Made by a program: the position numbers and the translations under genes. The notes beneath the pieces are model-generated. The model made no database searches, was not told the origin of the DNA, and saw nothing but the letters and a program-made list of their open reading frames with translations. A stretch of DNA of 24,000 bases from Olsenella uli DSM 7084 (GTDB lineage: Bacteria; Actinomycetota; Coriobacteriia; Coriobacteriales; Atopobiaceae): positions 209,186 through 233,185 of the forward strand of contig NC_014363.1 in the NCBI RefSeq assembly GCF_000143845.1, in the 5' to 3' direction. Positions 6,392 through 20,640 of the stretch are shown here, one piece after another. Position 1 is the first letter of the stretch, and each line of letters starts with the position of its first letter.

Positions 6392-6442
6392 GCCATCCGC
6401 TCTTACCGAGCTGCTTGCTCTCACAGCCGAGTGACATGCCAA

Positions 6443-6476
6443 GACGCCCTGTCCCTCATGCGAGGGTCAGGGCGTC
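6443..6476 (+). terminator. Stem-loop downstream of groEL (likely intrinsic terminator)
   Basis: GACGCCCTGTCCCTC-atgc-GAGGGTCAGGGCGTC: 15-nt arms with one central mismatch and a 4-nt loop, 52 nt after the groEL stop. It is followed by tgtctct, a poor U-tract, which is common in high-GC genomes. Confidence 0.6.
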
Positions 6477-6554
6477 TGTCTCTGCCGGTCCGCGTCCATC
6501 GAGGCAGCCTGGGTGCTCCAAGGAGACCGACAAAGGAGGAGCTCGCAGGTCTCA

Positions 6555-6578
6555 CTCGCGTCCCTTCTCGCGTCCCTT
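6555..6578. repeat. Perfect tandem direct repeat, 12 bp x 2 (CTCGCGTCCCTT)
   Basis: Read directly: 6555-6566 is identical to 6567-6578. It lies in the non-coding spacer between convergent groEL and yjjW. Confidence 0.85.
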
Positions 6579-6631
6579 GGTGCCGCCCCTCTTGGCATCG
6601 ACCTTCGCGGCTTGGCGTCGTCTCTCGGCCC

Positions 6632-6822
6632 CCAGAAGTGTGCACCGCTTCGCCAGAAGTGAGTACTTTTTCGTCCTTTGGAGAGGAGTACAAAGCCCGA
6701 TCGACATGTGCCCCTCGACATCATCGCAGGTACAGTGGCTGCCGAAAAAAGCAGAGGTGGGCGCAGGCACACACTTCCACAGCACAGGCACACACTTCCA
6801 CAGCACGGGTACACACTTCTGG
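6632..6822. repeat. 191-bp element bounded by 15-bp inverted repeats (14/15), with internal 21-bp phased GAAGTG/CACTTC sub-repeats; MITE-like or iteron-like
   Basis: The left end CCAGAAGTGTGCACC (6632-6646) matches the reverse complement of GGTACACACTTCTGG (6808-6822), which is CCAGAAGTGTGTACC. A second CCAGAAGTG lies at 6653-6661, 21 bp from the first. The right side carries a 21-bp tandem array. The interior is less GC-rich than the flanks. Confidence 0.6.
6765..6819. repeat. 21-bp tandem repeat, about 2.6 copies (AGGCACACACTTCCACAGCAC)
   Basis: 6765-6785 is identical to 6786-6806. A degenerate third partial copy, GGGTACACACTTC, spans 6807-6819. This forms the right arm of the 6632-6822 element. 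Confidence 0.9.
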
Positions 6823-6903
6823 TGGGTCCGGCGTGGCAGTGTCGCTTGGCCTACAGGCTTAGGCGCCATCGGTCGCCCTAGCTCCAGGTAACGACCGCCA
6901 CCC

Positions 6904-7800
6904 CTAGGTGGTGACCACCTCCCCAAAGCCGACATCGCGCGCGCGGCGCTCCAGCTGCGCCATGCGCTCGTCGCTGGGCGAGGCCATCGAGGAGAGCTCG
7001 CCGATGACGCCAAAGCGCCGAAACCGGATGAGCTTCAGGCGCTGCCTGCCGACCAGCTCGCCCAAGGTATCCGCGATGCCGTCGATGGCGTCCTCGGGGT
7101 CGTTCCAGCCGTCCACCACGACGACGCGTATCTCCTCGAGTTTGTCCCGCTCGCCCAAGAACGCAAGGTTCTTCAGGACGGTGGCGTTGCCCGAGCCCGT
7201 CAGGCGACGAAAGAGCCCGTCGTCCCAGGCCTTCACGTCGAGCATGACGCCATTGGCCACGGCAAGGAGGTCCTCGTGTCCCTCGAAGTCGATGGTGCCG
7301 TTGGTGTCGATGAGCGTTTCCAGCCCGATGCCCCGGCAGCGCTCAAAGAGCCCCTTCAGGAAGCGAGGGTGCAGCATGCACTCGCCGCCCGAGGTGGTCA
7401 CGCCGCGGATGAAGGGCACGTAGCCGCGCACGATGCCAAAGACCTCCCCGGCGTCCAGGAGGCGCACCTTGGGGGAGGCCCTGTGGCCGCAGACGTGGAT
7501 GCACTGGTCGCAGCCAATGCACGTGGCCTCGTCCCACACCACGCGCCCCTCGCGCAGCGAGAGTGCGCCCGACGGGCAGCCGGCAACGCAGTCCGTGCAG
7601 TTGATGCATGTCGCCTGGGTCTCGGGGTTGTGGCAGTAGGCACAACGGATGTTGCACCCCTGTAGGAAGACGGAGCAGCGCGAACCCGGGCCATCCACCA
7701 GGCTGAAGGGGATGACCTTGTTCACCATCACGCGCTCGGATGTGCGCTCGGATGCCCGCCTTCCCAATCTGGGGGCGGCAGCGTCGTCAGCTGGCATCAC
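6904..7800 (-). CDS. yjjW: Glycyl-radical enzyme activating protein (radical SAM), YjjW-like, with two auxiliary ferredoxin-type cluster motifs
   Basis: VDGPGSRCSVFLQGCNIRCAYCHNPE contains the CxxxCxxC motif at 7633-7656. It is followed by CINCTDCVAGCP and CIGCDQCIHVCG (CxxCxxCxxxC[PG]), and GVTTSGGE is typical of GRE activases. The start is uncertain. GTG 7800 overlaps the upstream stop as GTGA, ATG 7797 is the next codon, and ATG 7728 (MVNKVIPFSLVDGPG) is closest to homologue N-termini but has no clear SD. Confidence 0.85.
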   Translation of the reverse strand: MMPADDAAAPRLGRRASERTSERVMVNKVIPFSLVDGPGSRCSVFLQGCNIRCAYCHNPETQATCINCTDCVAGCPSGALSLREGRVVWDEATCIGCDQCIHVCGHRASPKVRLLDAGEVFGIVRGYVPFIRGVTTSGGECMLHPRFLKGLFERCRGIGLETLIDTNGTIDFEGHEDLLAVANGVMLDVKAWDDGLFRRLTGSGNATVLKNLAFLGERDKLEEIRVVVVDGWNDPEDAIDGIADTLGELVGRQRLKLIRFRRFGVIGELSSMASPSDERMAQLERRARDVGFGEVVTT

Positions 7801-9296
7801 CCGAGGCTGACCTTGCGGTCCGCGAGGTGGTTGGCGGTGTAGTTGCCCAGGCCGTCGTGGGCGGTGTCCTGCAGCACGGCGCCGCCGCCCTGGAAGCGCT
7901 CCATCTCGGAGCGCTTGGCCAGGAAGCCGGTGATGCGCACGAGGTCGCTGTCAGACGAGTAGAACGAGAGGTACTTGTCATCCAGGGCAAAGGCTCCCTT
8001 CACCACATCGAGCAGGGCGTCGGGGTTGCCCTTGGCCGTCGGCTCGATGGGGAAGATATCCGAGACGCCCGTGTTGAAGAAGCGGTGCATGCGCGCCTGC
8101 ATGCGGATGTGGTCGAAGAGGCTCTCTGGCTCCTCGCCCACGCGGATGCGCACGCCGGGCGTGACGCCCTTCTGGTCAGAGAAGCCCGCCTGCGCATGCA
8201 TGAGGAAGTGGCCGCCGGCCACCTCGGAGTAGACAGCGTCGAAGCCGGCCACCTGGGAGCAGATCCTCTCCATGATGCGCTCCGCGAGGGCATTGGCCTC
8301 GGGGTCGGTGCCATAGACGTGGTTGCCGCCAGGGGAGAGGAGCCGCTCCACGCATTCGCTCATGCCGGCGACGCCAAACATGCCACAGAAGCGCTCGCGC
8401 TCGATCAGGCCCTCCCTCACGAGGAAGGAGCTTTCGAAGAAGTGGGAGCGTTCTACGATGAAGCGCACGCGCTCGTTCATGAACTCGAGCAGCGCGCCTG
8501 TGGCCTCGGGAATCAGGTTGTCCATGAAGTCGTCCACGCCCGTGGCGAGCTCTGCCAGATGTGGCAGCAGGATGCGGTCGAGGCAGTAGGCCCCGCCGCG
8601 CAGGGGCAGTACGTTGTAGCAGCTCACGACCGTGTAGTCGTCAGGATAGGTCTCTCGGTGGATGCGGTCGTTGGCGAAGGCGGGGTTCGAGCAGAGCATC
8701 GTGGTCTCGAGGGCGAGGCGGGCGTAGCCGTCGGGCGTTATGGCAGGGTCGTACTTGAGGGTGAAGTTGGGCACGGCGTTCTGCAGCCTCTGCTCGACCC
8801 TGAGGAGCAGCTCTCCGGCGCGGGTGTACTCCGGGCCGATGTTGGCATGGCAGTAGCCGCTGGCGACGGTGCGGTCGACGTAGTCGAGGAAGCGGGCGAG
8901 CCTGTCCATGACCGACTCATCGTCGAGGTTCGCGATGAAGGGCTCGATGACGCGATCGAGCTGGCCCACGTAGACCGGTCTGCTCGTGACGGAGGGGACG
9001 TTGTCGTAGAGCATGGCCAGGCCCCAGAGGAGGTCGTCGAGGTCCTTGGGCGCGTCCAGACGCAAGAAGTCGCTGCCCTGCTCGGCAAAGAGCTGGTAGT
9101 CGGGGGCGATGTAGCGGGGTCGGTAGGGAGCGTTGCCCTCGCACATGTCATCGATGGCATGTGCGGCGAACAGCCGGTCGAACTCCTTCGTCGTCTTGAG
9201 GGGATGTTCGCTGTTCTCAGCGGCCTGCGCCAGGTGCAGCACCTTCTGCTTGTAGGTGAGGTTTCTCGCCGTGATGATGTCCATGAATCCGCTCAT
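7797..9296 (-). CDS. yjjI: YjjI-family (DUF3029) putative glycyl-radical enzyme, function unknown
   Basis: ORF 7797..9407. I prefer ATG 9296 (MSGFMDIITARNL...) because GAAGGGAAGG lies 5-6 nt upstream, giving 499 aa. The C-terminal DLVRITGFLA (7926-7946) resembles the glycyl-radical fingerprint RVxG[YF], with the Gly 43 residues from the end. The gene is translationally coupled to a GRE activase. The family assignment comes from memory of E. coli YjjI (about 516 aa) and is not a computed alignment. Confidence 0.75.
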   Translation of the reverse strand: MSGFMDIITARNLTYKQKVLHLAQAAENSEHPLKTTKEFDRLFAAHAIDDMCEGNAPYRPRYIAPDYQLFAEQGSDFLRLDAPKDLDDLLWGLAMLYDNVPSVTSRPVYVGQLDRVIEPFIANLDDESVMDRLARFLDYVDRTVASGYCHANIGPEYTRAGELLLRVEQRLQNAVPNFTLKYDPAITPDGYARLALETTMLCSNPAFANDRIHRETYPDDYTVVSCYNVLPLRGGAYCLDRILLPHLAELATGVDDFMDNLIPEATGALLEFMNERVRFIVERSHFFESSFLVREGLIERERFCGMFGVAGMSECVERLLSPGGNHVYGTDPEANALAERIMERICSQVAGFDAVYSEVAGGHFLMHAQAGFSDQKGVTPGVRIRVGEEPESLFDHIRMQARMHRFFNTGVSDIFPIEPTAKGNPDALLDVVKGAFALDDKYLSFYSSDSDLVRITGFLAKRSEMERFQGGGAVLQDTAHDGLGNYTANHLADRKVSLG

Positions 9297-9393
9297 CGCG
9301 CCTTCCCTTCGTCGTTCGCTCCGGTCGCCCTCCCCTGCTTTGAGGCAACAAGCTGTCAGCCCCATCTTATGGGAGCGAGCCAAGGCAAGACGA

Positions 9394-9405
9394 GGACATT
9401 TGTCC
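9394..9405. promoter_or_regulatory. Palindrome GGACA-TT-TGTCC about 100 bp upstream of yjjI
   Basis: Read directly: 5-bp arms with a 2-bp spacer, located in the psuG-yjjI intergenic region. Confidence 0.35.
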
Positions 9406-9422
9406 ACTTTTGCGAGAAAATC

Positions 9423-9446
9423 GCCAGCTGCCTTGCCAGCTGCCTT
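9423..9446. promoter_or_regulatory. Perfect tandem 12-mer x 2 (GCCAGCTGCCTT), each containing the CAGCTG palindrome; candidate operator upstream of yjjI
   Basis: 9423-9434 is identical to 9435-9446. It lies 127-150 bp upstream of the yjjI ATG and just downstream, in minus-strand sense, of the psuG hairpin. Confidence 0.4.
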
Positions 9447-9481
9447 TGTGGTGCCCTTCGCTACGGGGCGTCAAGGGGAAA

Positions 9482-9507
9482 GGGCGCACCCCTGATGGGA
9501 TGCGCCC
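9482..9507 (-). terminator. Stem-loop 25 nt downstream of the psuG stop (terminator or attenuator between psuG and yjjI)
   Basis: On the plus strand: GGGCGCAcCCC-tgat-GGGaTGCGCCC, 11-nt arms with one mismatch. On the minus strand it is followed by TTTCCCCTT, a short U-tract. Confidence 0.5.
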
Positions 9508-9531
9508 CCCGCCTGCCACGTCCCTCGGACG

Positions 9532-10461
9532 CTACGCCCTGCGTGCGCAGAGCTCCTTGGCGACCTCGGCACCCAGCGCGACGTTGTTGTACACCAGCTG
9601 GATGTTGGCCTCGAGGCTGGCGCCGCCGGTCATCTTCTGGATCTTGTCGAGGAGGTAGGGCGTTATATCCTTGCCGCGCACGCCCAGGGCGCCCGCCTCG
9701 GCGACGGCCTCATCGATGGTCTGGTTGATCGCGTCCGCATCCATGGAGTACTGCTCGGGGATGGGGTTGGTGACGAGCAGACCGCCCCTGAGGCCGACGG
9801 CCTCCTTGGCATTGAAGATGCCGGCGAGTTCGGAGGCGGTGTCAACGCGGTAGTCGACCCCGAAGGCGCTCTCGCGGGTGTAGAACGCGGGGAGCACGTC
9901 GGTCTGGTAGCCCAGGACGGTGACGCCCTTGGTCTCGAGGTACTCGCGGGTGAGACCGAGGTCGAGGATGGACTTGGCACCTGCGCAGATGACCATGACC
10001 GGCGTCTGCGCGAGCTCCTCGAGGTCGGCGGAGACGTCCATGGTGGTCTCGGCCCCGCGATGGACTCCGCCGATGCCGCCCGTGGCGAACACGGAGATGC
10101 CCGCCAGGCTGGCGATGATCATGGTCGCGGCGACGGTGGAGGCGCCGTCTGCCGCACGCTCGATGAGCACCGGGAGGTCCCTGCGGCTCGCCTTGGTCAC
10201 CTCGAGGCCCTTCTTGCCCAGGCGCTCGATCTGCTCGGCGGAGCAGCCGGCGACGAGCTTGCCGCCGATGATGGCGATGGTGGCGGGGACGGCGCCGTGG
10301 TCGCGGATGATCCTCTCGACGTTGAGGGCGGTCTCGACGTTTCTGGGGTAGGGCATGCCATGGGAGATGATGGTGGACTCGAGGGCGACGACGGGCCTGT
10401 TGTTGTCAAGCGCCTCCTGGACCTCAGGCGAGACGACCAGGTAATCCTTGAGGTTCTTCAC
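9532..10461 (-). CDS. psuG: Pseudouridine-5'-phosphate glycosidase
   Basis: VSPEVQEALDNNRPVVALESTIISHGMPYPRN is the hallmark N-terminus of PsuG/YeiN (indigoidine synthase A-like family). I prefer the GTG at 10461, with GGAAGGAGAGG 5-8 nt upstream, giving 309 aa versus about 312 aa for E. coli. The track ORF (10557) adds an Arg/Pro-rich extension. Confidence 0.9.
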   Translation of the reverse strand: MKNLKDYLVVSPEVQEALDNNRPVVALESTIISHGMPYPRNVETALNVERIIRDHGAVPATIAIIGGKLVAGCSAEQIERLGKKGLEVTKASRRDLPVLIERAADGASTVAATMIIASLAGISVFATGGIGGVHRGAETTMDVSADLEELAQTPVMVICAGAKSILDLGLTREYLETKGVTVLGYQTDVLPAFYTRESAFGVDYRVDTASELAGIFNAKEAVGLRGGLLVTNPIPEQYSMDADAINQTIDEAVAEAGALGVRGKDITPYLLDKIQKMTGGASLEANIQLVYNNVALGAEVAKELCARRA

Positions 10462-10553
10462 GGTACCTCTCCTTCCTTCTTGCCCCGCAGGGGGCACGCG
10501 TTCCTTCGTGCTATGTCGAGCGGGCCGTCGCGGCTGCGGTCGCGACCGTCGCG

Positions 10554-11654
10554 TCACTCCGTCGTGCAGGTCTCCATGCGGGCGAGGAGCGCGTCCTCGC
10601 TCATGGAGGCGCTGATGGTGTCGGGGCTTTCCACGCAGATGGCCGCCGCCGCGATTCCTGCGCGGCCGCCTTCCTCGAGGGAGTGCCCGCAGAGCCAGCT
10701 CCAGGTGATGGCCGCCATCATCGCGTCCCCGGCCCCCGTCGTGTTCGCCACCCTGGTCTCGAGGGGGGGGAGCAGGGTACGATGCGTGTGGTCGGCACAG
10801 AGGACGCCCTCGCTTCCGAGTGAGACGAAGACGCGTTCGAGCCCCGTCCCGAGAAGCCTGTCCACTGCTCTATCGAGTGACGTGCGGTCGCTGATGTGCA
10901 CGCCCGTGAGCACCTCCGCCTCAAGACGGTTGGGCTTGAGCGTGTGGAGCCTCCCGAGGACACCCCCGAGCTTCTCGGCCTTTGCCGTGGAGACGGGATC
11001 GCAGAAGAGGGGCGCCCGCACGTGCTCGGAGAGGTAGCGGATGGATGCCACGGGCAGGTTGGCGTCGATGACGCAGACGTCCGCGCGGTCGAGGGCATCG
11101 AGGTGGCGCTCGAGGAAGGCGGGCGTGAGCTCGTCGAAGATGCGCATGTCGGCAACGGCGACGCTCATGTCCCCCCTGCGGTCCGCCACGAAGAGGTAGG
11201 TGGAGGTGGTACCGCCGCTTACGGTGAGGGAGGATGAGATGTCTATGCCGGCGCTGCGACAGGCTCCCGTCAGCAGGGCCGCGCGCTCGTCGGTGCCGAA
11301 GGCGGAGACGAGACGTACGTCCTGCCCCAGGAGCGCGAGGTTGTGGGCGATGTTCCTGCCCGCCCCACCGGGTGAGGTGGTAACGCTGCCTGGATTTGAA
11401 TCGCGTTGACGGAGCTCCTGGAAGGGACGTCCGCCGATGTCGAGGTTGGCTCCGCCCACGACCGTCACGTAGGGGGCCTTGCGCACCACGTAGCGCCTCC
11501 CCAGTATGGCTCCCTTGCGCATGAGGCTCGAGACGTGCACGGCCACGGACGAGCGCGAGATGCCTGCCCGCCCGGCGAGTTCGGACTGTGTAACGGCAGG
11601 GTTCTCCTCTATCCAGGAGAGGATCTGCCGCTCTCGCTCTGTCAGGGAGTCCAT
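10554..11654 (-). CDS. psuK: PfkB-family pseudouridine kinase fused to an N-terminal winged-helix HTH domain
   Basis: The N-terminus MDSLTERERQILSWIEENPAVTQSELAGRAGISRSSVAVHVSSLMRKGAILGR is a MarR/DeoR-like wHTH. It is followed by VTVVGGANLDIGG, PGGAGRNIAHNLALLG (YeiC-type) and NTTGAGDAMMAA (PfkB signature 2). ATG 11654 is preceded by GGAGCGGAGGG. Confidence 0.85.
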   Translation of the reverse strand: MDSLTERERQILSWIEENPAVTQSELAGRAGISRSSVAVHVSSLMRKGAILGRRYVVRKAPYVTVVGGANLDIGGRPFQELRQRDSNPGSVTTSPGGAGRNIAHNLALLGQDVRLVSAFGTDERAALLTGACRSAGIDISSSLTVSGGTTSTYLFVADRRGDMSVAVADMRIFDELTPAFLERHLDALDRADVCVIDANLPVASIRYLSEHVRAPLFCDPVSTAKAEKLGGVLGRLHTLKPNRLEAEVLTGVHISDRTSLDRAVDRLLGTGLERVFVSLGSEGVLCADHTHRTLLPPLETRVANTTGAGDAMMAAITWSWLCGHSLEEGGRAGIAAAAICVESPDTISASMSEDALLARMETCTTE

Positions 11655-11690
11655 GTGCCCTCCGCTCCTGCTGCGTAATTTAAGCATATG

Positions 11691-11696
11691 ATTATA
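11691..11696 (-). promoter_or_regulatory. Candidate -10 box (perfect TATAAT on the minus strand) for psuK, within an AT-rich divergent promoter zone (about 11676-11725)
   Basis: ATTATA on the plus strand reads TATAAT on the minus strand, about 37 nt upstream of the psuK ATG. It lies inside the 12-bp palindrome TTATATATATAA (11692-11703). No good -35 box. The surrounding AT-rich stretch is conspicuous in a high-GC genome. Confidence 0.35.
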
Positions 11697-11736
11697 TATA
11701 TAAGCACCTGTTTAAAATAGTGAATCGAGACGAGTC

Positions 11737-11800
11737 CTCTGTCAAGGGACTTCCGTCGGCCGGGGCGATTTCGGCCCTCACGGCGCCTTTGTCCACAGAG
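11737..11800. promoter_or_regulatory. 64-nt extended imperfect hairpin in the psuK/deoB divergent region (possible deoB leader structure)
   Basis: The helices are nested: CTCTGT/ACAGAG, GGAC/GTCC, CCGT/ACGG and GGCCG/CGGCC, closing a 9-nt loop (gggcgattt). Read by eye; no free energy was computed. Confidence 0.35.
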
Positions 11801-11998
11801 CGAACATAAGCTGCCTCTCGAATACAACCGCTTACGACGCGATGGGCCCCGTCTGCTTGCGATCGACCGAAGTCTGGCCTGCGAGACGACAAACTGTCCT
11901 ATCGTCTTCTCTGTTATTTCGTACGTGTTTCGTGGCTGCCCCCATGACGCGCCGGGAGATGGGTGCGCGTGGGGGCGCAGGAGTTTGGGAGGTGGGGG

Positions 11999-13201
11999 AT
12001 GGGCAGACGTGCGTTCCTGGTCGTGCTCGACAGCTTTGGCATCGGCGAGGCGCCCGATGCGGCGGAGTACGGTGACGAGGGCAGCAATACCCTGTGCGCC
12101 TGCGCGACAAGTCCGCACTTCTCGATGGACAATATGCGCGACCTGGGGTTGTTTAACATAGAGGGTGCGCTGGACTCCGTCTATGACGTGCACCTCTCGC
12201 CCACGAGCGCTCCCCAGGGCGCCTTCGCGCGCCTGCGCGAGGCGTCCAAGGGCAAGGACACCACGGTCGGGCACTGGGAGATGGCAGGCGTCATCTCGCC
12301 CAAGCTCTTCCCCACCTACCCCGACGGCTTCCCTGCAGAGGTCATAGAGGAGTTCGAGCGCCAGTGCGGTCGCAAGGTTCTCTGCAACAGGCCCTACTCG
12401 GGCACTGACGTCATCCGTGACTTCGGGGACGAGATGGTGGAGCGGGGCGCCCTCATCGTCTACACCTCAGCCGACAGCGTGTTCCAGATCGCCGCGCACG
12501 AGGACGTCGTCCCCTGCGAGAAGCTCTACGAGTACTGCCGCATTGCCCGCGGGATACTGACGGGCGCCCACGGAGTCGCCCGCGTCATAGCTCGCCCCTT
12601 CGTCGGAGAGAGCGGCAGCTACGTGCGCACGCCCCGTCGTCACGACTTCTCGCTGGAGCCGACGGGCACGACCATGCTCGACCGGCTGACCGAGGAGGGC
12701 GCAGACGTCATCTCCGTGGGCAAGATCTTCGACATCTTCGCCCATCGGGGTATCAAGGAGTCCATCCCTACCACGGGCAACCCCGAGGGCATCGAGCGCA
12801 CCATCGAGCTGCTCGACCGCGACTTCGAGGGCCTGTGCTTCACGAACCTGGTGGACACGGACATGATCTACGGTCACCGCAACGACGTCGACGGCTACGC
12901 CAAGGCGCTCGCCTACTTCGACGCGCACGTCCCCGCCATCCTCTCCAAGCTGCGCGAGGACGACCTCTTCATGATCGTCGCCGATCACGGCTGCGACCCT
13001 GTGACGCCCTCGACCGACCACTCGCGCGAGTACGTGCCCTGGGTCATCGCTGGGCCGCGCGTAAGGGCAGGGGCGGACCTTGGCACACGTCCGACCTTCG
13101 CGGACGTCTCGGCGACCATCCTCGACTATCTGGACGCGAGCCCCCTTGGCGTCGGCGTCTCTCATGTCAGCGAGATTCTGGAGGTACGTGACGATGGCTA
13201 G
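11999..13201 (+). CDS. deoB: Phosphopentomutase
   Basis: Motifs [34 protein letters not shown] and VADHGCDP are typical of DeoB; 400 aa. GGGAGG at 11987-11992 lies 6 nt before ATG 11999. Confidence 0.92.
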
Positions 13202-13922
13202 CGTTCCCACGCCCCACAACGACGCCCTCGAGGGGCAGATCGCCCCGCTCGTCCTCATGCCAGGCGACCCCCTGCGCGCCCGTTACATCGCCGAGGGCTA
13301 CCTCGAGGATGTGACCTGCTTCAACGGGGTCCGCAACATGCTTGGCTTCACGGGCACCTACCAGGGAAACCCCGTCTCCGTCATGGGCAGCGGCATGGGC
13401 ATGCCCTCCATCGGGATCTACTCGTACGAGCTCTACAACTTCTACGGCGTGGACGCCATCGTCCGCATCGGTAGCGCTGGTGGCATCGGTGACGGGCTCA
13501 GGCTGCGCGACCTCGTCATTGCCCAAGGGGCTTGCACCGACTCCAACTACGCGCGCCAGTTCGCCCTGCCGGGGACCTTCGCCCCCATTGCGGACTTCGG
13601 CCTGCTCCGTCGTGCCGTGGAGTCGGCCGAGCGCCTGGGCGTGCCCGTGCGTGTGGGCAACGTGCTCTCAGAAGACGCGTTCTACTCGGCAGATGAGACG
13701 GGTGCCGCGCGCTGGGCGGCCATGGGAGTGCTTGCGCTCGAGATGGAGGCCGCAGCCCTCTACATGAACGCCGCCCATGCGCACAAGCGTGCGCTGGCGA
13801 TGCTCTCCATCTCGGACCTCGTGTTCACGGGCGAGGCACTTCCCGCCTCCGAGCGACAGACCAGCTTCACGCAGATGATGGAGGTGGCGCTCTCGCTCGC
13901 CGTTCCCGAGGCAGAAAAGTAG
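13194..13922 (+). CDS. deoD: Purine nucleoside phosphorylase, DeoD type
   Basis: Motifs [40 protein letters not shown] and LSISDLV; 242 aa. ATG 13194 overlaps the deoB stop by 8 nt. GGAGG lies at 13180-13184. Confidence 0.92.
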
Positions 13923-14030: not shown

Positions 14031-15101
14031 ATGAACATGAACCTCTCGCGCAGGCAGTTCATGAGGGGGACGGCCGCGCTCGCCGTCACCCTGGGCCTTG
14101 GTGGCTGTGGCGGCACCAGTGGCGGCACCGACACCGGTGCCACCGACAAGGCCTCCGAGGCCAGCTACAAGATCCAGATGGTCACGGACACGGGCGGCGT
14201 CAACGACCAGTCGTTCAACCAGCTCGCCTGGGAGGGCCTGCAGAAGCTCAAGGACGAGCGCGGCTGGGACATCAGCTACCTCGAGTCCAAGCAGGAGTCC
14301 GACTACGCCACCAACCTCGACAAGGCCGTGGACGACAACGCCAACCTCGTCTGGGGCGTTGGCTTTGCCATGGCAGACGCCGTCGAGAACAGCGCCAAGT
14401 CCAACCCCGACGTGCAGTTCGCCGTCATCGACAACGCCTACGAGAACCCGCCCTCCAACCTCGTGGGCGTCTGCTTCCGTGCGCAGGAGCCCTCGTTCAT
14501 GGTCGGCTACATTGCCGCCTGCACCACCAAGACCGGTCAGGTCGGCTTTGTCGGTGGCGTCTCCAGCTCGATCATCGACCAGTTCGAGTGGGGCTACAAG
14601 GCCGGCGTTGCCTATGGTGCCAAGGAGAAGGGCACCGAGGTGACGGTCTCGGCCCAGTACGCCGACAGCTTCACCGACTCCGCGAAGGGCAAGGCCATCG
14701 CCTCGAAGATGTTCTCCGATGGCTGCGACGTGGTCTTCCATGCTGCCGGTGGCGTGGGCACGGGTGTCATCGAGGCAGCCAAGGAGGCCAACAAGTACGC
14801 CATCGGCGTCGACAAGGACCAGGCCTACCTCGCCCCCGACAACGTCCTGACCTCCGCCCTCAAGCGCGTCGACAAGGCCGTCATCGAGGTCTCGCAGAAG
14901 ATCGAGGCCAAGGAGGTCTCCGGTGGCGACAACATGAGCCTGGGCATGTCCGAGGAGGCGGTCGGCATCCCCGAGGACCACAAGCTCATGGGTGAGGATG
15001 TCTACAAGGCCGCCATCGAGCTCGGCGACAAGATCAGGGGCGGCTCCATCGTTCCTCCCGCGAGCGAAGCCGACTACGCCACGTACGTCGCTGCGCTCTA
15101 G
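14031..15101 (+). CDS. BMP-family (PnrA/TmpC/NupN-like) nucleoside-binding lipoprotein of an ABC transporter, with a Tat-type signal peptide
   Basis: MNMNLSRRQFMRGTAALAVTLGLGGCGG carries a twin-arginine motif SRRxFM and a lipobox LGGC. Mature-domain motifs DTGGVNDQSFNQ and FVGG are typical of the Bmp family. A strong SD precedes the start. Confidence 0.88.
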   Translation: MNMNLSRRQFMRGTAALAVTLGLGGCGGTSGGTDTGATDKASEASYKIQMVTDTGGVNDQSFNQLAWEGLQKLKDERGWDISYLESKQESDYATNLDKAVDDNANLVWGVGFAMADAVENSAKSNPDVQFAVIDNAYENPPSNLVGVCFRAQEPSFMVGYIAACTTKTGQVGFVGGVSSSIIDQFEWGYKAGVAYGAKEKGTEVTVSAQYADSFTDSAKGKAIASKMFSDGCDVVFHAAGGVGTGVIEAAKEANKYAIGVDKDQAYLAPDNVLTSALKRVDKAVIEVSQKIEAKEVSGGDNMSLGMSEEAVGIPEDHKLMGEDVYKAAIELGDKIRGGSIVPPASEADYATYVAAL

Positions 15102-15138
15102 AGGCGCATCGAATCGATTCCCAACCGTTGCCTTGTGA

Positions 15139-15167
15139 GGGGGAGCGCCCGTTTCGGGTGCTCCCCC
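15139..15167 (+). promoter_or_regulatory. Strong intercistronic hairpin between the binding-protein and ATPase genes
   Basis: GGGGGAGCGCCCG-ttt-CGGGTGCTCCCCC: 13-nt arms with one G-U pair. It lies 38 nt after the BMP stop and about 36 nt before the ATPase start. Confidence 0.55.
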
Positions 15168-15202
15168 GCTGCAGGGCCCCAGGAGGGCGAAGGAGGTAAT
15201 GC

Positions 15203-16732
15203 ATGGAGGCATGCTCCGAGTATGCCGTGCAGATGCACGGCATCACCAAGACGTTCGGCACGTTCACGGCTCTCGATGGGGTTGACCTCGACGTACGCAG
15301 GCAGACGGTCCACGCCATCCTCGGCGAGAACGGTGCGGGCAAGTCGACGCTCATGAACGTGCTGTATGGTCTCTATCAGGCAGATTCCGGTGAGGTCTAC
15401 CTTGGCGGCGAGCGCGTGGAGATAGGCGGGCCCAGCGATGCCATCAAGCGCGGTATCGGCATGGTCCACCAGCACTTCATGCTCGTGGAGAACTTCACCG
15501 TCACCGAGAACATCATCCTCGGCGACGAGGTGTGCGGTCCTGCAGGGACGCTTGACATGAGGCGCGCCCGCGAGGACGTCGCCAAGATCGTCGACGAGTA
15601 CGGCTTCGACATCGACCCCGACGCCAAGATCGAGGACATCACGGTCGGCATGCAGCAGCGCGTGGAGATCCTCAAGGCCCTCTACCGCGGTGCCGACACC
15701 CTGATCCTCGACGAGCCGACGGCGGTCTTGACGCCCCAGGAGATCGAGCAGCTCATCAGGATCATGCGTGACCTCGTGAGCAAGGGCAAGACGATCATCA
15801 TCATCACCCACAAGCTCAAGGAGATCATGTCCTCGGCGGACGTGTGCACGATCATCCGCAGGGGACAGTACATGGGCACCGTCGATGTCGCCGACGTCGA
15901 CGAGGCCGAGCTTGCCGCCAAGATGGTCGGGCGCCGCGTCAACCTCACGGTCGAGAAGGCCCCGGCCACGCCGGGCGAGACCGTGCTGTCCATCCGAGAC
16001 CTCCATGTGAAGGACGAGCGCGGCATAGAGCAGGTGACGGGCCTCTCCCTCGACGTGCGCGCCGGGGAGATCGTGGGCATAGCGGGAGTCGACGGCAACG
16101 GCCAGAAGGAACTCGTCGACGCCATCACCTGTCTCGTCAAGGTCGAGTCGGGAACGATCAGCGTGCAGGGGACCGAGCTGCAGAACACGAGCCCCCGCTA
16201 CGTCCTCGACCACGGTGTCGCCACGGTCCACTCGGACCGCCACCGCTTCGGCATGGTGCTGCCCATGACCGTGGCCGAGAACATGGTGCTCGAGCGCCAT
16301 GGCGAGGAGCGCTTCGGCAAGGGGCTCATGCTCGACTATGACAAGATGCGCTCGTTCACCCGCGAGCTGATCGAGGAGTTCGACATTCGACCGTCGGGCT
16401 GCGAGGATAGCGTCGCCAAGGGCCTCTCGGGAGGAAACCAGCAGAAGGCCGTCATCGCACGCGAGGTCTCCGGGAGCCCGGAACTGCTCGTTGCCGTCCA
16501 GCCCACACGTGGCCTGGACGTGGGTGCCATAGAGTTCGTGCACAAGACGCTCGTGCGCGAGCGCGACAAGGGGAAGGCCGTCCTTCTCATCTCGCTCGAG
16601 CTGGACGAGGTGATGAGTGTCTCGGACACCATCGACGTCATCTACGGCGGGAAGATCGTAGGCAGCTTCGAGCAGGGAAGCGTGGGCGAGGAGGAGCTTG
16701 GCCTCCTGATGGCGGGAGGCGGTAGCAAGTGA
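15203..16732 (+). CDS. ABC transporter ATP-binding protein with duplicated ATPase domains (nucleoside/sugar CUT2-type, NupA/NupO-like)
   Basis: Walker A GENGAGKST, second-domain P-loop GVDGNGQKE, signature LSGGNQQK, and Walker B LILDEPT / LLVAVQPTRGLD; 509 aa. AGGAGG lies 6 nt upstream of the start. Confidence 0.9.
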   Translation: MEACSEYAVQMHGITKTFGTFTALDGVDLDVRRQTVHAILGENGAGKSTLMNVLYGLYQADSGEVYLGGERVEIGGPSDAIKRGIGMVHQHFMLVENFTVTENIILGDEVCGPAGTLDMRRAREDVAKIVDEYGFDIDPDAKIEDITVGMQQRVEILKALYRGADTLILDEPTAVLTPQEIEQLIRIMRDLVSKGKTIIIITHKLKEIMSSADVCTIIRRGQYMGTVDVADVDEAELAAKMVGRRVNLTVEKAPATPGETVLSIRDLHVKDERGIEQVTGLSLDVRAGEIVGIAGVDGNGQKELVDAITCLVKVESGTISVQGTELQNTSPRYVLDHGVATVHSDRHRFGMVLPMTVAENMVLERHGEERFGKGLMLDYDKMRSFTRELIEEFDIRPSGCEDSVAKGLSGGNQQKAVIAREVSGSPELLVAVQPTRGLDVGAIEFVHKTLVRERDKGKAVLLISLELDEVMSVSDTIDVIYGGKIVGSFEQGSVGEEELGLLMAGGGSK

Positions 16733-17862
16733 AGACGCTCATCAGGATCATGAGGAAGCCCATCACCTCCTCGTTGGTCGCCATCCTCGTCGGCTTCGTC
16801 GTCGCGTCCATCGTCCTCGCGGCTGCGGGCTATGACCCCCTGGCCTCGTTCGCGGCCCTGTTCAACGGGATGCTCGGCAAGCCCAAGTACATCTCCAACG
16901 TGGTCATCAAGGCCACGCCGCTTTTGCTCACGGGCATCGCCGTCGCCTTCGCGTTCAAGGTGGGCCTGTTCAACATCGGCGCCGAGGGGCAGTACATCAT
17001 CGGCACCATCTGCGCCGTGATGGCGGGCACCACCCTCAACCTCCCGGCCCCCATCCAGGTTCCCCTCGTGGTCCTCGCGGGCATGCTCGGGGGCGCGGCG
17101 GGAGGGGCCTTCGTCGGGTGGCTCAAGGCGCGCTTCGGCATCCACGAGGTCATCACGAGCATCATGATGAACTGGATTGCCCTCTACCTCTGCAACTTCG
17201 TGGTCAACACGAGCGCGTTCCACCAGCCGGACTCGACGGCGAGCTATCCCGTGAACCCCTCGAGCTATACCATGGTCCTACCCAACTGGAAGCTCTCCGA
17301 GGCGGGCATGGACACGCTCAAGGACGTGCCCTGGCTTTACGACGTGCTTGTCAAGACGGACGTCAACGTGGGCATCCTGGTGGCCATCGTGGCGGCGGTC
17401 CTCGTCGCCGTCCTGCTCTCGCGCACCAAGAGCGGCTATGAGATGCGCGCCGTGGGCCTCAACCGGGAAGCCGCCCGCTTCGCGGGCATCAGCGTCGAGA
17501 AGAACATCGTCCTGTGCATGCTCATCTCGGGTGCCCTCTGCGGCCTTGCGGGTGCGCTGACGATCACGGGCACCGCCCCGCACAGCCTGTCCATCCTCGC
17601 CGCCTTCGAGAACGCCGGCTTCAACGGGCTCTCCGTCGCCTTCATCGCGGGATGCTCGCCCATCGGCTGCATCCCGGCGAGCCTGCTCTTCAGCGGCCTC
17701 ATCTACGGTGGCCAGACAGTCCAGCAGGTCATGGGGGCACCGTCTGACATCATCAACATCATGATCGGGACCATCGTGTTCTTCATGGCTCTCGGAGGAG
17801 TCATCCCCATGCTCGCCGCACGGCTCGAGAAGAGGGAGAAGGAGGCCGCACATGCTCAGTAA
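16729..17862 (+). CDS. ABC transporter permease (BPD_transp_2 type, NupB/NupP-like)
   Basis: The 377-aa sequence is strongly hydrophobic and multi-spanning. The GTG start overlaps the ATPase stop as GTGA. The operon context is BMP, ATPase and two permeases. Confidence 0.85.
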   Translation: MKTLIRIMRKPITSSLVAILVGFVVASIVLAAAGYDPLASFAALFNGMLGKPKYISNVVIKATPLLLTGIAVAFAFKVGLFNIGAEGQYIIGTICAVMAGTTLNLPAPIQVPLVVLAGMLGGAAGGAFVGWLKARFGIHEVITSIMMNWIALYLCNFVVNTSAFHQPDSTASYPVNPSSYTMVLPNWKLSEAGMDTLKDVPWLYDVLVKTDVNVGILVAIVAAVLVAVLLSRTKSGYEMRAVGLNREAARFAGISVEKNIVLCMLISGALCGLAGALTITGTAPHSLSILAAFENAGFNGLSVAFIAGCSPIGCIPASLLFSGLIYGGQTVQQVMGAPSDIINIMIGTIVFFMALGGVIPMLAARLEKREKEAAHAQ

Positions 17863-18772
17863 TCTGCTTCTCCTCGTGGGGATCACGCTCATGTACTCGA
17901 CGCCTCTCGTGTTCGGTGCCCTGGGAGGCGTAGTCTCGGAGCGCTCGGGCGTCACCAACATCGGCATCGAGGGCATGATGTCGGTTGGTGCCATAGCCGC
18001 AGCCTCCACCAGCTACTTCACGGGCAACCCCTGGCTTGGCTTTTTGGCTGCCGGCATCGCGGGCACGCTCATCGCGCTGCTGCACGCCATCGCCTCGGTG
18101 ACGTTCAATGCGGACCAGACCGTCTCGGGCGTGGCCATCAACCTGCTTGCGCCTGGTGTGTCGCTGTTCGTCTGCCGCAGGCTCTTCGACAACGCGGCCA
18201 TGACCCCTCCCGTCACCACGCTTCCCAAGCTCTTTGGCGAGGGGGCCTTTGCGGGCACGGAGTTCTCCAACCTCAACGTGGACGTCACGGTCATGCTCGC
18301 GCTCGTGGCGGCACTGGTCGTCTGGTTCGTGCTGTACAAGACCAAGTGGGGACTGCGCGTCCGTGCCGTGGGCGAGCACCCGGCGGCTGCCGACACCCTT
18401 GGCATCGACGTGGGACGCACCCGCTACGTCTGCGTGCTCGTCTCGGGGCTTCTGGCAGGGTTCGGTGGCGCGTCGGTGACGCTGGCCATCATCTCCCAGT
18501 TCACCCAGACGGCCATCAGCGGCCAGGGCTTCATCGCGCTCGCCGCGGTCATCTTCGGCAAGTGGAAGCCGCAGGGTGCCTATGGCGCCTGCCTGCTCTT
18601 TGGTCTTGCGCAGGCCCTCGCGGTCATCCTCGGCGGTGGAGCGACCCCCATCCCCAGCCAGATCGTGGCCATGTTCCCCTACGTCATGACCATCGTCGTG
18701 CTGGTGCTGTTCGTGGGCCGCTCCGAGGCCCCCAAGGCGGACGGCGTCCCCTACATCAAGGGCGGGCGCTAA
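17852..18772 (+). CDS. ABC transporter permease (NupC/NupQ-like)
   Basis: A 306-aa polytopic membrane protein that overlaps the upstream permease gene by 11 nt. Its C-terminus ...GRSEAPKADGVPYIKGGR is typical of this permease family. Confidence 0.85.
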   Translation: MLSNLLLLVGITLMYSTPLVFGALGGVVSERSGVTNIGIEGMMSVGAIAAASTSYFTGNPWLGFLAAGIAGTLIALLHAIASVTFNADQTVSGVAINLLAPGVSLFVCRRLFDNAAMTPPVTTLPKLFGEGAFAGTEFSNLNVDVTVMLALVAALVVWFVLYKTKWGLRVRAVGEHPAAADTLGIDVGRTRYVCVLVSGLLAGFGGASVTLAIISQFTQTAISGQGFIALAAVIFGKWKPQGAYGACLLFGLAQALAVILGGGATPIPSQIVAMFPYVMTIVVLVLFVGRSEAPKADGVPYIKGGR

Positions 18773-18791
18773 GGCAAGGCACGTATGCTAC

Positions 18792-18835
18792 CAGGAGGGG
18801 CCCGCCAGCGCGCCATGCCCTGTGGGCCCCTCCTG
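18792..18835 (+). promoter_or_regulatory. Perfect 12-bp inverted repeat (CAGGAGGGGCCC ... GGGCCCCTCCTG) with a 20-nt loop between the permease gene and cdd; possible partial terminator or mRNA stabiliser
   Basis: Read directly. It begins 20 nt after the permease stop and is followed by actcattctttcc, which is weakly T-rich. The cdd SD AAGGAG lies at 18851-18856. Confidence 0.5.
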
Positions 18836-18865
18836 ACTCATTCTTTCCGGAAGGAGCGATGGGGG

Positions 18866-19312
18866 ATGGAAGACAGCGAGCTCGTGCGAGAGGCTATCGT
18901 TGCCCGCGAGGGCGCGTACGTGCCCTACTCGCACTTCTCCGTCGGCGCCGCGCTGCTGGACGCGGACGGGCGCGTGTGGCATGGCTGCAACATCGAGAAC
19001 GCGGCCTACTCGCCAGGTAACTGCGCGGAGCGCACGGCCATCTTCAAGGCGGTGAGCGAGGGGGTGCGAGGCTTCGTGGCCATCGCCGTCGTGGGCGGGG
19101 CCGAGGGCAGGCCCATCAGCGACTGGTGCGCCCCCTGCGGGGTGTGCCGCCAGGTCTTGCGCGAGTTCTGCGATCCCGGGAGCTTCAGGGTCGTGCTTGC
19201 ACGTTCGCCACAGGACATGCGGGGCTATCTCCTCAAGGAGCTGCTGCCGATGGGCTTTGGGCCCGAGGACCTCAGGCGTGCGGATGACAACGGGGAGGCT
19301 GATGCACAGTGA
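18866..19312 (+). CDS. cdd: Cytidine deaminase (homotetrameric type)
   Basis: Motifs YVPYSHFSVGAALL, CAERTAIFKAV (zinc-binding CAE) and PCGVCRQVLREF; 148 aa from ATG 18866. Confidence 0.92.
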   Translation: MEDSELVREAIVAREGAYVPYSHFSVGAALLDADGRVWHGCNIENAAYSPGNCAERTAIFKAVSEGVRGFVAIAVVGGAEGRPISDWCAPCGVCRQVLREFCDPGSFRVVLARSPQDMRGYLLKELLPMGFGPEDLRRADDNGEADAQ

Positions 19313-20640
19313 GGATGTACGACGTCATCGAGCACAAGCGCAATGGGGGGGAGCTGAGCGACGAGGAGATCAGGTTCTTCGTCGACGGCTACTCCTCCGG
19401 CGAGATTCCCGACTATCAGGCCTCGGCCCTGTGCATGGCCATCTACTACCAGGGCATGACGGAGCGCGAGACGGCCAGCCTCACCATGGACATGGTGCGC
19501 TCGGGCGACGTCGTGGACCTGTCGGGCATAGACGGCGTCAAGGTGGACAAGCACTCCACGGGTGGCGTGGGTGACAAGACCTCGCTGGCGGTCGCTCCCA
19601 TCGTGGCCTCGCTCGGCGTGCGCATGGCGAAGATGAGCGGACGTGGCCTGGGCCACACGGGTGGCACCCTCGACAAGCTGGAGTCCATCCCCGGGCTCTC
19701 CTGTGACATAGATGGTGCGCGCTTCGAGGAGATCGTGAGGACGGTGGGCGTCGCCATCGTCGGACAGACGGGCAACCTCGTGCCCGCAGACAAGAAGCTC
19801 TACGCGCTGCGCGACGTCACGGCGACCGTGGACAGCCTGCCGCTCATCGCCTCGAGCATCATGAGCAAGAAGATCGCCGCAGGATCCGACAAGATCCTGC
19901 TTGACGTGAAGTGCGGCAGCGGCGCCTTCATGAAGACCGTAGATGACGCCATCGCGCTTGCCAAGTCCATGGTCTCCATCGGAGAGCACGTGGGGCGCAC
20001 CACCGTCGCCCTCATCACCGACATGGGCCGGCCCCTGGGCAACTGCATCGGGAACGCCCTCGAGGTGAGCGAGGCGGTGGCCACCCTCAGGGGAGAGGGT
20101 CCGAGGGACCTCACGGACGTCTGCGTGGAGCTGGCGGGCAACCTCCTGTTCTTGGCGGGGAGGGGCGAGCTGGACGCATGCCGCCTTCTGGCCCGTGGAC
20201 AGATCGCCAACGGGGAGGGCCTCGCGAAGCTCAAGGAGATGGTCGCTGCCCAGGGGGGAGACGCCTCGGTGCTGGACGACTGCGCCTCCAGGCTCGTGGA
20301 GCCGCGGCTGTCGCGCGAGCTGCGCGCCACGCGGGACGGACACCTCTTCTCGATGGACACGGAGCGCTGCGGCATGGCGTCAGTCGCCTTGGGCGCGGGT
20401 CGTGCCCGCAAGGAGGACGCCATAGACCACTCTGCCGGCATCGTCCTGGCGAAGAAGACGGGTGACAGCCTGGTCGAAGGCGATCTTCTCGCCACGCTCT
20501 TCGCGGCGGACGAGGGCCTGCTCGACGAGGGGGAGCGCGTCTTCCGCGACGCGCTTGACATCCGAGACGAGCCTCCTGCGGCTCCGCCGCTCTTTCATGC
20601 GCGCGTGTCGTGCGAGGGTGTGGAGCGCACGGACGCGTGA
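19309..20640 (+). CDS. pdp: Pyrimidine-nucleoside (thymidine/uridine) phosphorylase
   Basis: MRMYDVIEHKRNGGELSDEEIRFFVDGYSSGEIPDYQASALCMAIYYQGM and KHSTGGVGDK; 443 aa. The N-terminus parallels B. subtilis Pdp (MRMVDII..., recalled from memory). The GTG start overlaps the cdd stop as GTGA. Confidence 0.92.
   Translation: MRMYDVIEHKRNGGELSDEEIRFFVDGYSSGEIPDYQASALCMAIYYQGMTERETASLTMDMVRSGDVVDLSGIDGVKVDKHSTGGVGDKTSLAVAPIVASLGVRMAKMSGRGLGHTGGTLDKLESIPGLSCDIDGARFEEIVRTVGVAIVGQTGNLVPADKKLYALRDVTATVDSLPLIASSIMSKKIAAGSDKILLDVKCGSGAFMKTVDDAIALAKSMVSIGEHVGRTTVALITDMGRPLGNCIGNALEVSEAVATLRGEGPRDLTDVCVELAGNLLFLAGRGELDACRLLARGQIANGEGLAKLKEMVAAQGGDASVLDDCASRLVEPRLSRELRATRDGHLFSMDTERCGMASVALGAGRARKEDAIDHSAGIVLAKKTGDSLVEGDLLATLFAADEGLLDEGERVFRDALDIRDEPPAAPPLFHARVSCEGVERTDA

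Follow-up and report, generated by a model that had tools for sequence, protein, structure and literature searches.

The window analysed here is a stretch of 24,000 nucleotides (nt) from Olsenella uli DSM 7084 (contig NC_014363.1, positions 209,186–233,185 of the forward strand; G+C content 66%). Its minus strand carries two adjoining genes, yjjI and yjjW, for a glycyl radical enzyme and a radical S-adenosylmethionine (SAM) activase. Family matches, sequence motifs and a predicted structure confirm, at the level of sequence, that the two form a genuine enzyme/activase pair, and the genes that surround them here and in related genomes indicate that the locus is probably a two-component, oxygen-free glycyl radical system serving nucleoside catabolism. 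The object itself is not new: its orphan family is already known and named, and the locus is an unremarkable member. The features of the pair, in window coordinates, are as follows.

7797..9296, minus strand: yjjI, encoding a 499-residue YjjI-family glycyl radical enzyme (PF11230, TIGR04040, AlphaFold2 model)
7926..7937, minus strand: glycyl radical loop R454-I-T-G457 (conservation in alignments, hairpin tip in the model)
8613..8624, minus strand: putative thiyl-radical Cys loop S225-C226-Y-N228 (conservation, model, phmmer alignment)
6904..7800, minus strand: yjjW, encoding a radical-SAM activase, longest open reading frame (ORF) 298 residues (TIGR04041)
7633..7656, minus strand: radical-SAM motif CNIRCAYC (CX3CX2C; translation, PF04055 and Fer4_12 matches)
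7492..7608, minus strand: two CX2CX2CX3C motifs of auxiliary [4Fe-4S] clusters (translation; Fer4_7, Fer4_9 and Fer4_10 at residues 62–107)

The assignment to the YjjI and YjjW families, made earlier from the letters alone (the sequence-only reading), is borne out, with curated cut-offs exceeded for all three family models. YjjI scores 588.1 bits against TIGR04040 (cut-off 498.3; model positions 3–496 of 497) and 695 bits against PF11230 (YjjI-like, formerly DUF3029; E = 4.9e-209, residues 13–496, model 1–484 of 485). YjjW scores 356.9 bits against TIGR04041 (cut-off 250.2), and its second-best models, the hydroxyproline-dehydratase activase and then PFLE_PFLC, both stay below their cut-offs. 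Note that TIGR04040 and TIGR04041 are typed 'hypoth_equivalog' in NCBIfam: the family is recognised, its function is not. The nearest YjjI relatives are found in Atopobiaceae (Olsenella, Atopobium/Lancefieldella and Tractidigestivibacter) at 67–75% identity, and a 458-kb ENA metagenome contig has a 99%-identical copy, in the same gene order as in the window. YjjI representatives number 427 at E ≤ 1e-3 and 73 at E ≤ 1e-30, with no domain fusions among the full-length matches (437–532 residues) of the 150 listed, and of 170 loci almost all have the two genes adjacent or overlapping. Several records in a 'plasmids' collection that carry yjjI matches are chromosome-sized (for example, NZ_OL790811.1, 4.08 Mb; NZ_AP026896.1, 4.94 Mb; NZ_CP134663.1, 4.90 Mb) and several are almost unannotated, so that matches there are no sign of plasmid-borne yjjI.

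The yjjI reading frame runs from ATG 9296 to the TGA at 7797–7799, with the purine-rich sequence GAAGGGAAGG just 5′ of the start codon. The predicted radical-bearing glycine, which the sequence-only reading had located near the C-terminus, is Gly457 of DLVRITG (7946–7926) and has 42 residues after it. Both R454 and G457 are invariant across alignments A1, A2 and A3, and T456 is invariant in A1 and A2. The motif comes close to the PROSITE glycyl-radical pattern without a strict match, having L, T and F at three positions. Three alignments of diverse members (12, 70 and 27 sequences) show a single Cys that is invariant across the family, C226, within the motif S-C-[YF]-N; C202 is frequent, yet absent in Haliovirga and in the broad alignment A3. 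The segment around C226, VVSCYNV (8630–8610), is aligned by phmmer with the IACCVSS (CC) loop of a formate acetyltransferase. Further polar residues invariant throughout the family are E53, R61, Y62, Y97, D114, D141, H150, N177, S225, N228, R241, E295, H367, Q369 and R383, and members of the window's clade have additional invariant Arg, Lys and His residues. The conserved cationic residues would be compatible with an anionic, possibly phosphorylated substrate.

YjjW contains VDGPG at residues 35–39, the SAM-cluster cysteines C49, C53 and C56, and the two auxiliary motifs CINCTDCVAGC (C65–C75; 7608–7576) and CIGCDQCIHVC (C93–C103; 7524–7492), which, with the TIGR04041 score, uphold its reading as an activase with two auxiliary clusters. 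The GTG at 7800–7798 overlaps the yjjI stop codon as GTGA, and the next codon is an in-frame ATG (7797), the overlapping start chosen by the gene caller of the 99%-identical ENA contig. The upstream start is doubtful, however, because the TIGR04041 match begins at residue 24, leaving a 23-residue extension outside the family model, and because an exact 12-nt tandem duplication (7732–7754, GCGCTCGGATGT on the plus strand), encoding the peptide ASERTSER, lies within that extension. Translation could instead begin at GTG 7731 or ATG 7728, 66–69 nt past the yjjI stop. Hence the overlap seen by the sequence-only reading stands, and the translational coupling it drew from it is likely but not proven. 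In related loci, when longest-ORF starts are used, the yjjI/yjjW junction is a 4-nt overlap in 18 cases, a 1-nt overlap in nine and a 20-nt spacer in 25.

An AlphaFold2 model of YjjI, computed with 70 homologues in the alignment, has a mean predicted local distance difference test score (pLDDT) of 91.4 and a predicted template-modelling score (pTM) of 0.91. It places C226 at the tip of a hairpin between strands 221–224 and 228–231 and G457 at the tip of another between strands 452–455 and 458–461, as one would expect of the two finger loops in a glycyl radical enzyme. The loop VVSCYNVL had been proposed as a candidate Cys loop, and the invariance of C226 and its position on a hairpin tip favor that choice. 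A Foldseek comparison of the model with the PDB returned chains of NrdD, the class III ribonucleotide reductase (RNR), as its top seven matches (E = 5.5e-16 to 4e-14). The best is P. copri NrdD (8p2s_B, E = 5.5e-16, TM-score on the query (TMq) 0.74), and the T. maritima, T4 and S. thermophilus enzymes are also found, followed by PflD, YbiW, HypD, the propanediol and glycerol dehydratases (PDH, GDH) and pyruvate formate-lyase (PFL). The glycyl-radical-enzyme barrel that had been looked for is thus present in the model, with NrdD as the nearest fold. Likeness to NrdD extends to the 10-stranded barrel with Gly and Cys finger loops, to a similarly compact size if the NrdD ATP-cone is left out of account, and to a ribosyl-compound context. 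The differences are a sequence identity of 12–14%, the absence from YjjI of the second redox Cys/Met, the C-terminal Zn cysteines and the ATP-cone, and the long activase with two auxiliary clusters in place of NrdG. An hhalign alignment of YjjI with E. coli NrdD is collinear, but with a probability of 2% and the Cys loops three residues out of register, it is of qualitative use only. No sequence relatives of YjjI were found in the PDB.

The genes around the pair are those named by the sequence-only reading, and deoC is absent from the 24-kb window, as it had also observed.

9297..9531, minus strand: psuG–yjjI spacer, 235 nt, with a weak terminator-like hairpin at 9442–9425 and a second hairpin at 9482–9507
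9532..10557, minus strand: psuG, pseudouridine-5′-phosphate glycosidase, directly upstream of yjjI (PF04227, E = 9e-130)
10554..11687, minus strand: psuK-like PfkB kinase with an N-terminal winged helix-turn-helix (HTH) domain (PF00294 and HTH_24)
11963..13201, plus strand: deoB, phosphopentomutase, divergent from psuK (PF01676)
13191..13922, plus strand: deoD, purine nucleoside phosphorylase (TIGR00107, 287 bits versus a cut-off of 232)
14031..18772, plus strand: Bmp/PnrA-type nucleoside ATP-binding cassette (ABC) transporter, comprising binding protein, ATPase and two permeases (PF02608, E = 9e-80; Pfam on the 99%-identical contig)
18785..20640, plus strand: cdd, cytidine deaminase, and pdp, pyrimidine-nucleoside phosphorylase (PF00383, PF08211; NF004747, 575 bits versus 559)

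The conservation of this nucleoside context was examined in related genomes. Taking one genome per species, relatives occur in at least 588 species, and the best 80 loci were used; lineages are clusters at 80% YjjI identity, and nucleoside genes were counted within 10 kb. Greedy ORF calls in high-GC loci gave antisense ORFs, and for those loci we relied on tblastn gene panels and on cross-phylum clusters. In 82 loci the tblastn panel detects DeoD/Udp in 51, the Bmp binding protein in 50, DeoB in 35 (matched with the window's DeoB and E. coli DeoB as queries), DeoC in 32, PsuG in 28 and Cdd in 16. Counted by lineage, nucleoside genes lie near yjjI in 21 of the 29 lineages of this genome sample, which represents the window's clade, or in 20 of 29 on enzymes alone. 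The positive lineages belong to Atopobiaceae, Lachnospiraceae, Oscillospiraceae, Tissierellia, Peptoniphilaceae, Christensenellaceae, Bacillaceae and Spirochaetaceae.

At least seven distinct gene orders surround yjjI among the nucleoside-linked lineages of this clade. Atopobiaceae have Bmp-ABC-deoD-deoB <> psuK-psuG-(crp)-yjjI-yjjW >< deoC; Hungatella and Lacrimispora have yjjI-yjjW-Bmp-ABC-udp-deoD-cdd; Peptoniphilaceae have yjjI-yjjW-cdd-Bmp-ABC-udp; Oscillospiraceae and Spirochaetaceae have udp <> Bmp-ABC-yjjI-yjjW; and Christensenellaceae have udp-yjjI-yjjW. Analogues are present even in two lineages that the panel scores as negative: Texcoconibacillus has crp-yjjI-yjjW-IUNH-rbsK-IUNH, with nucleoside hydrolase (IUNH) and ribokinase (rbsK) genes, and Neobacillus has crp-yjjI-yjjW followed by a NupG-type symporter gene. 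In most Atopobiaceae relatives deoC converges on yjjW (L004–L041, at about 12.4–16.3 kb), the place held by the convergent groES-groEL genes in the window, and an iron-containing alcohol dehydrogenase is encoded near deoC in 21 of these relatives.

Many of the Firmicutes tblastn 'DeoD' matches are uridine phosphorylases (TIGR01718 above cut-off), and the steadiest theme is therefore the conversion of uridine, cytidine or pseudouridine to uracil and ribose-phosphate. An enzyme that can yield uracil (Udp, Pdp, Cdd giving uridine, PsuG or IUNH) is encoded in 20 of the 21 positive lineages; the Atopobiaceae phosphorylase is a purine-type DeoD. The product common to all contexts is ribose-5-phosphate, formed by phosphorylase and DeoB, by hydrolase and RbsK, or by PsuK and PsuG. 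PfkB kinases recur directly upstream of yjjI, and DeoB and DeoC are recurrent neighbours as well.

A metagenome sample of 80 contigs, centred on a second, low-GC clade, has nucleoside genes in 12 of 49 lineages, or in 10 of the 33 with at least 10 kb of sequence. Examples are rbsK-yjjI-yjjW...IUNH (group 0) and Bmp-ABC-IUNH-yjjI-yjjW. In one metagenomic lineage yjjI and yjjW are separated by a NUDIX hydrolase gene (L135:7744-8211, L137:7878-8345), which hints at a nucleoside-diphosphate-X compound such as ADP-ribose as a possible source of the substrate. A YjjW-type activase gene adjoins yjjI in 28 of the 29 lineage groups of the genome sample and in 42 of the 49 of the metagenome sample.

The E. 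coli system (YjjI, b4380; YjjW, b4379) belongs to the same families, with YjjI 38% identical over 95% of its length, and shares the S-C-Y-N Cys loop, the R-[IV]-T-G-[YF] Gly loop, the gene order, in which the activase gene overlaps or abuts yjjI, and nucleoside genes alongside. It differs in that deoCABD is divergent from the pair, 257 bp separating them in K-12, with no psuKG or Bmp transporter, while the window lacks deoC. E. coli YjjI falls in a distant subclade, and nucleoside genes do not accompany the subclade's other members. The link appears in E. coli alone among seven distant records (five Proteobacteria, Haliovirga and a Chloroflexota). In Proteus mirabilis (L084, 4528–10344) yjjI-yjjW follow straight after radA-serB-ytjB, the lplA-deoDBAC segment that lies between in E. 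coli (L001) being absent. Linkage of yjjIW to the deo operon is therefore not general in Enterobacterales, and E. coli is a weak independent witness. The sequence-only reading had argued from the recurrence of the arrangement in E. coli. The arrangement is there, but its value as independent testimony is small, given the unlinked pairs of Proteus, Vibrio, Aeromonas and Microbulbifer. The wider association that it proposed holds in the window's clade and in part of the second, and fails in the distant records save E. coli.

The most frequent immediate neighbour of the pair is a regulator. In 58 loci, representing 14 of 29 lineages, a Crp/Fnr-family gene (cNMP-binding domain and HTH_Crp_2) directly precedes yjjI in the same orientation (for example, L016:9090-9854 and L048:9231-9998), and in Haliovirga one is divergent from yjjI. 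The one representative examined (L048) has no N-terminal Cys cluster. There is no Crp-family regulator in the window, where the psuG–yjjI spacer occupies the position it holds in most relatives; the window's lineage has either lost the gene or never had one. E. coli yjjI is listed among the FNR-bound operons whose expression rises anaerobically (PMC3688515), and a 2011 co-expression study places it in an FNR/nitrogen-metabolism bicluster (PMC3228777).

Judged from these neighbourhoods, the nucleoside link is real but clade-dependent, and the varied gene orders and non-orthologous substitutes are a stronger argument for it than any P value. Together with the lineage counts they support the role in nucleoside catabolism that the sequence-only reading had inferred. 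In the mechanism that we envisage, the substrate would be imported as a ribonucleoside, judging from context, by the Bmp-type ABC transporter here and by a NupG symporter in Neobacillus. It would then derive from the flux through Udp/DeoD/Pdp/Cdd, PsuK-PsuG or IUNH and ribokinase to uracil (or a purine) and ribose-5-phosphate. As is standard for these families, YjjW, which carries a SAM-binding cluster as well as two auxiliary [4Fe-4S] clusters, would abstract hydrogen from Gly457 of YjjI; Cys226, on the finger loop opposite, would take over the radical from Gly457, and the resulting thiyl radical would remove a hydrogen atom from the substrate. YjjI may represent an unrecognised minimal (about 500 residues) glycyl-radical branch with a new reaction on a ribonucleoside-derived substrate, a tentative proposal that falls just short of an even chance. 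Such a reaction might be a 2-dehydration or elimination by a radical route, with ribose-5-phosphate or a nucleoside 5′-phosphate as substrate, or an anaerobic conversion of uracil. The single Cys, the invariant Arg, His and Lys residues, the NrdD-like barrel and the PfkB, DeoB and DeoC neighbours lead us to favor a redox-neutral elimination on a 5-phosphoribosyl compound, either ribose-5-phosphate or a nucleoside 5′-phosphate, although taken as a specific claim it is rather unlikely. This reaction would resemble the first half-reaction of RNR, in which abstraction of the 3-hydrogen is followed by loss of the 2-substituent, with no true reduction.

Several points weigh against the role in nucleoside catabolism and the chemistry proposed for it. 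About 70% of second-clade lineages have no nucleoside genes, many of their pairs standing beside ruvAB-queA-tgt or unrelated genes, and none were found by yjjIW in Vibrio, Proteus, Aeromonas, Microbulbifer, a Chloroflexota or Haliovirga. The binomial P for 20 of 29 lineages (about 3e-24 to 4e-14 at chance rates of 3–10%) shows scale only, because the chance rate is assumed and the lineages are related rather than independent. Cases that depend on Bmp are weak because this family carries other ligands too. The apposition of C226 and G457 is one that we infer from strand positions, not from coordinates. Ribose-5-phosphate already has a non-radical fate, which leaves the selective benefit unexplained, and for the substrate class and chemistry of YjjI we have inference only. 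The searched literature and the PDB hold no reaction, phenotype or structure for YjjI: in keeping with the earlier statement that no substrate is assigned, the literature gave expression and FNR data and the 2011 guess at nitrogen metabolism.

YjjI might instead act on the released nucleobase, most plausibly uracil, in an oxygen-independent ring breakdown or nitrogen release that replaces Rut-like, O2-dependent chemistry. The most consistent neighbours are indeed the uracil-yielding enzymes (Udp, Pdp, Cdd, PsuG and IUNH), the ribose moiety has its own co-located enzymes in DeoB and RbsK, and the nitrogen-metabolism bicluster (PMC3228777) points the same way. However, the recurrent neighbours of the pair include neither a nucleobase transporter nor a gene of dihydropyrimidinase or ureidopropionase type; the transporters are of nucleoside type. 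The fold of YjjI resembles a ribose-binding enzyme, and the Atopobiaceae phosphorylase is of the purine type. Together these points make a nucleobase substrate improbable.

The nucleoside neighbourhood could also be incidental to an unrelated anaerobic function, reflecting shared anaerobic regulation, synteny inherited in a few large clades, or chance. About 60% of the 78 lineage groups have no nearby nucleoside gene, the Proteobacterial, Chloroflexota and Fusobacteriota examples are unlinked, the Enterobacterales pair stays by serB-ytjB with or without the deo operon, and the most frequent immediate neighbour is a Crp/Fnr-type regulator, not a nucleoside regulator. Chance would have to account for 33 of 78 lineages, far more than is plausible (binomial P < 1e-13 for the first sample at an assumed 10% per lineage). 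Inherited synteny is insufficient because gene orders differ and the non-homologous IUNH, RbsK, NupG and NUDIX genes replace phosphorylases and ABC transporters. We regard an incidental neighbourhood as quite improbable.

A further alternative starts from the fold. As the closest solved folds are NrdD, YjjI could be a stripped-down class III RNR that acts as a nucleoside- or pentose-phosphate-level reductase and converts ribosyl to 2-deoxyribosyl compounds. DeoC would then split the product to glyceraldehyde-3-phosphate and acetaldehyde, which would provide anaerobes with a C5 to C3 + C2 route and an electron sink. The position of deoC next to yjjW or yjjI in E. coli, most Atopobiaceae and Hungatella hathewayi fits this scheme, as does the iron-containing alcohol dehydrogenase that accompanies deoC in 21 loci. 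Class III RNR reduction requires a second Cys together with a Met (C175 and M382 in E. coli) or a Cys pair, plus a Cys4 Zn site. YjjI has no second invariant Cys; position −2 relative to C226 is V, I, A or S, not Met, so that there is no M-x-C; and residues 316–499 contain no Cys, leaving none in the C-terminal 60 and no C-terminal Cys4. The NRDD family (PF13597) is matched at 17.2 bits, below its gathering score of 26.2, and YjjW scores 36.6 bits against 126 for the NrdG model and 69.7 against 131 for NrdG2. Moreover, deoC is missing from the window and from most Firmicutes loci. Because the redox residues and Zn site are absent, the NRDD match is sub-threshold and the activase is not of the NrdG type, the sequence argues against RNR-type reduction by YjjI, and we regard this alternative, too, as quite improbable.

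The pair also bears comparison with other glycyl radical enzymes. E. coli PflD/PflC and YbiW/YbiY have deposited structures with sugar-phosphate ligands (8id0, 8id7) and activases with auxiliary clusters, and PflD and YbiW act on anhydro-sugar phosphates. The pflD and ybiW genes lie beside aldolase genes (fsaB and fsaA), much as yjjI lies beside deoC in E. coli and Atopobiaceae. These enzymes differ in length (about 770–810 residues) and in having PFL-like and canonical Gly_radical domains, both of which the 499-residue YjjI fails (PF02901, 18.3 bits versus 24.3; PF01228, no reported match); the identity is 10–12%. The 1,2-eliminases (glycerol/propanediol dehydratase, HypD, CutC and IslA) offer a single catalytic Cys, a redox-neutral elimination and activases with two ferredoxin-like clusters, and the activase of HypD is the one whose model scores best with YjjW after its own. 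They are larger, at 780–850 residues, and carry a Cys-x-Glu general-base motif, whereas YjjI has a Cys-Tyr-Asn loop with an invariant Asn where the Glu is expected.

YjjI/YjjW belongs to the small number of E. coli glycyl radical systems without a known reaction, and it is carried by at least 588 species and many metagenome contigs. Glycyl radical enzymes of gut anaerobes have repeatedly given new chemistry, as in the cleavage of choline, hydroxyproline and isethionate. The nucleoside link brings the search for a YjjI substrate down to about a dozen purchasable compounds and suggests that a radical step is missing from the known picture of anaerobic nucleoside catabolism. If true, the new reaction would extend nucleoside catabolism in anaerobes of gut and sediment by a step that needs no oxygen, and would give an E. 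coli orphan a function. For the window itself the significance is modest, since it holds a well-annotated orphan-family member in a typical Atopobiaceae arrangement. What the present analysis adds is a quantified and clade-resolved nucleoside link, a pyrimidine/ribose-5-phosphate focus, the companion regulator and the exclusion, on sequence grounds, of RNR-type reduction, a context that makes the function of the E. coli orphan gene directly testable.

Some minor features of the window remain to be described. In the psuG–yjjI spacer, the terminator-like hairpin is built from an exact 12-nt tandem duplication at 9423–9446 (GCCAGCTGCCTT ×2). A sigma-70 promoter scan of 6400–12100 gave no consensus match, and Rfam models searched against the window and six diverse loci found nothing near yjjI, the only matches being an unrelated tetrahydrofolate (THF) riboswitch, a group II intron and a tRNA. 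Between pdp and ychF lies a gene for a 423-residue protein (20767–22038) with two distant 4Fe-4S ferredoxin-type modules and no specific family match. As a candidate redox partner it was rejected, having no homologue in the first 82 related loci searched. Repeats of a 21-nt unit, CAGGCACACACTTCCACAGCA, lie at 6632–6673 and 6764–6819 in the convergent groEL–yjjW spacer and comprise 2.7 tandem copies and, 125 nt away, two inverted degenerate ones. The ENA gene caller places a 173-residue ORF, with no Pfam match, over this repeat region, and a 16-nt perfect-stem hairpin is found at 6442–6477.

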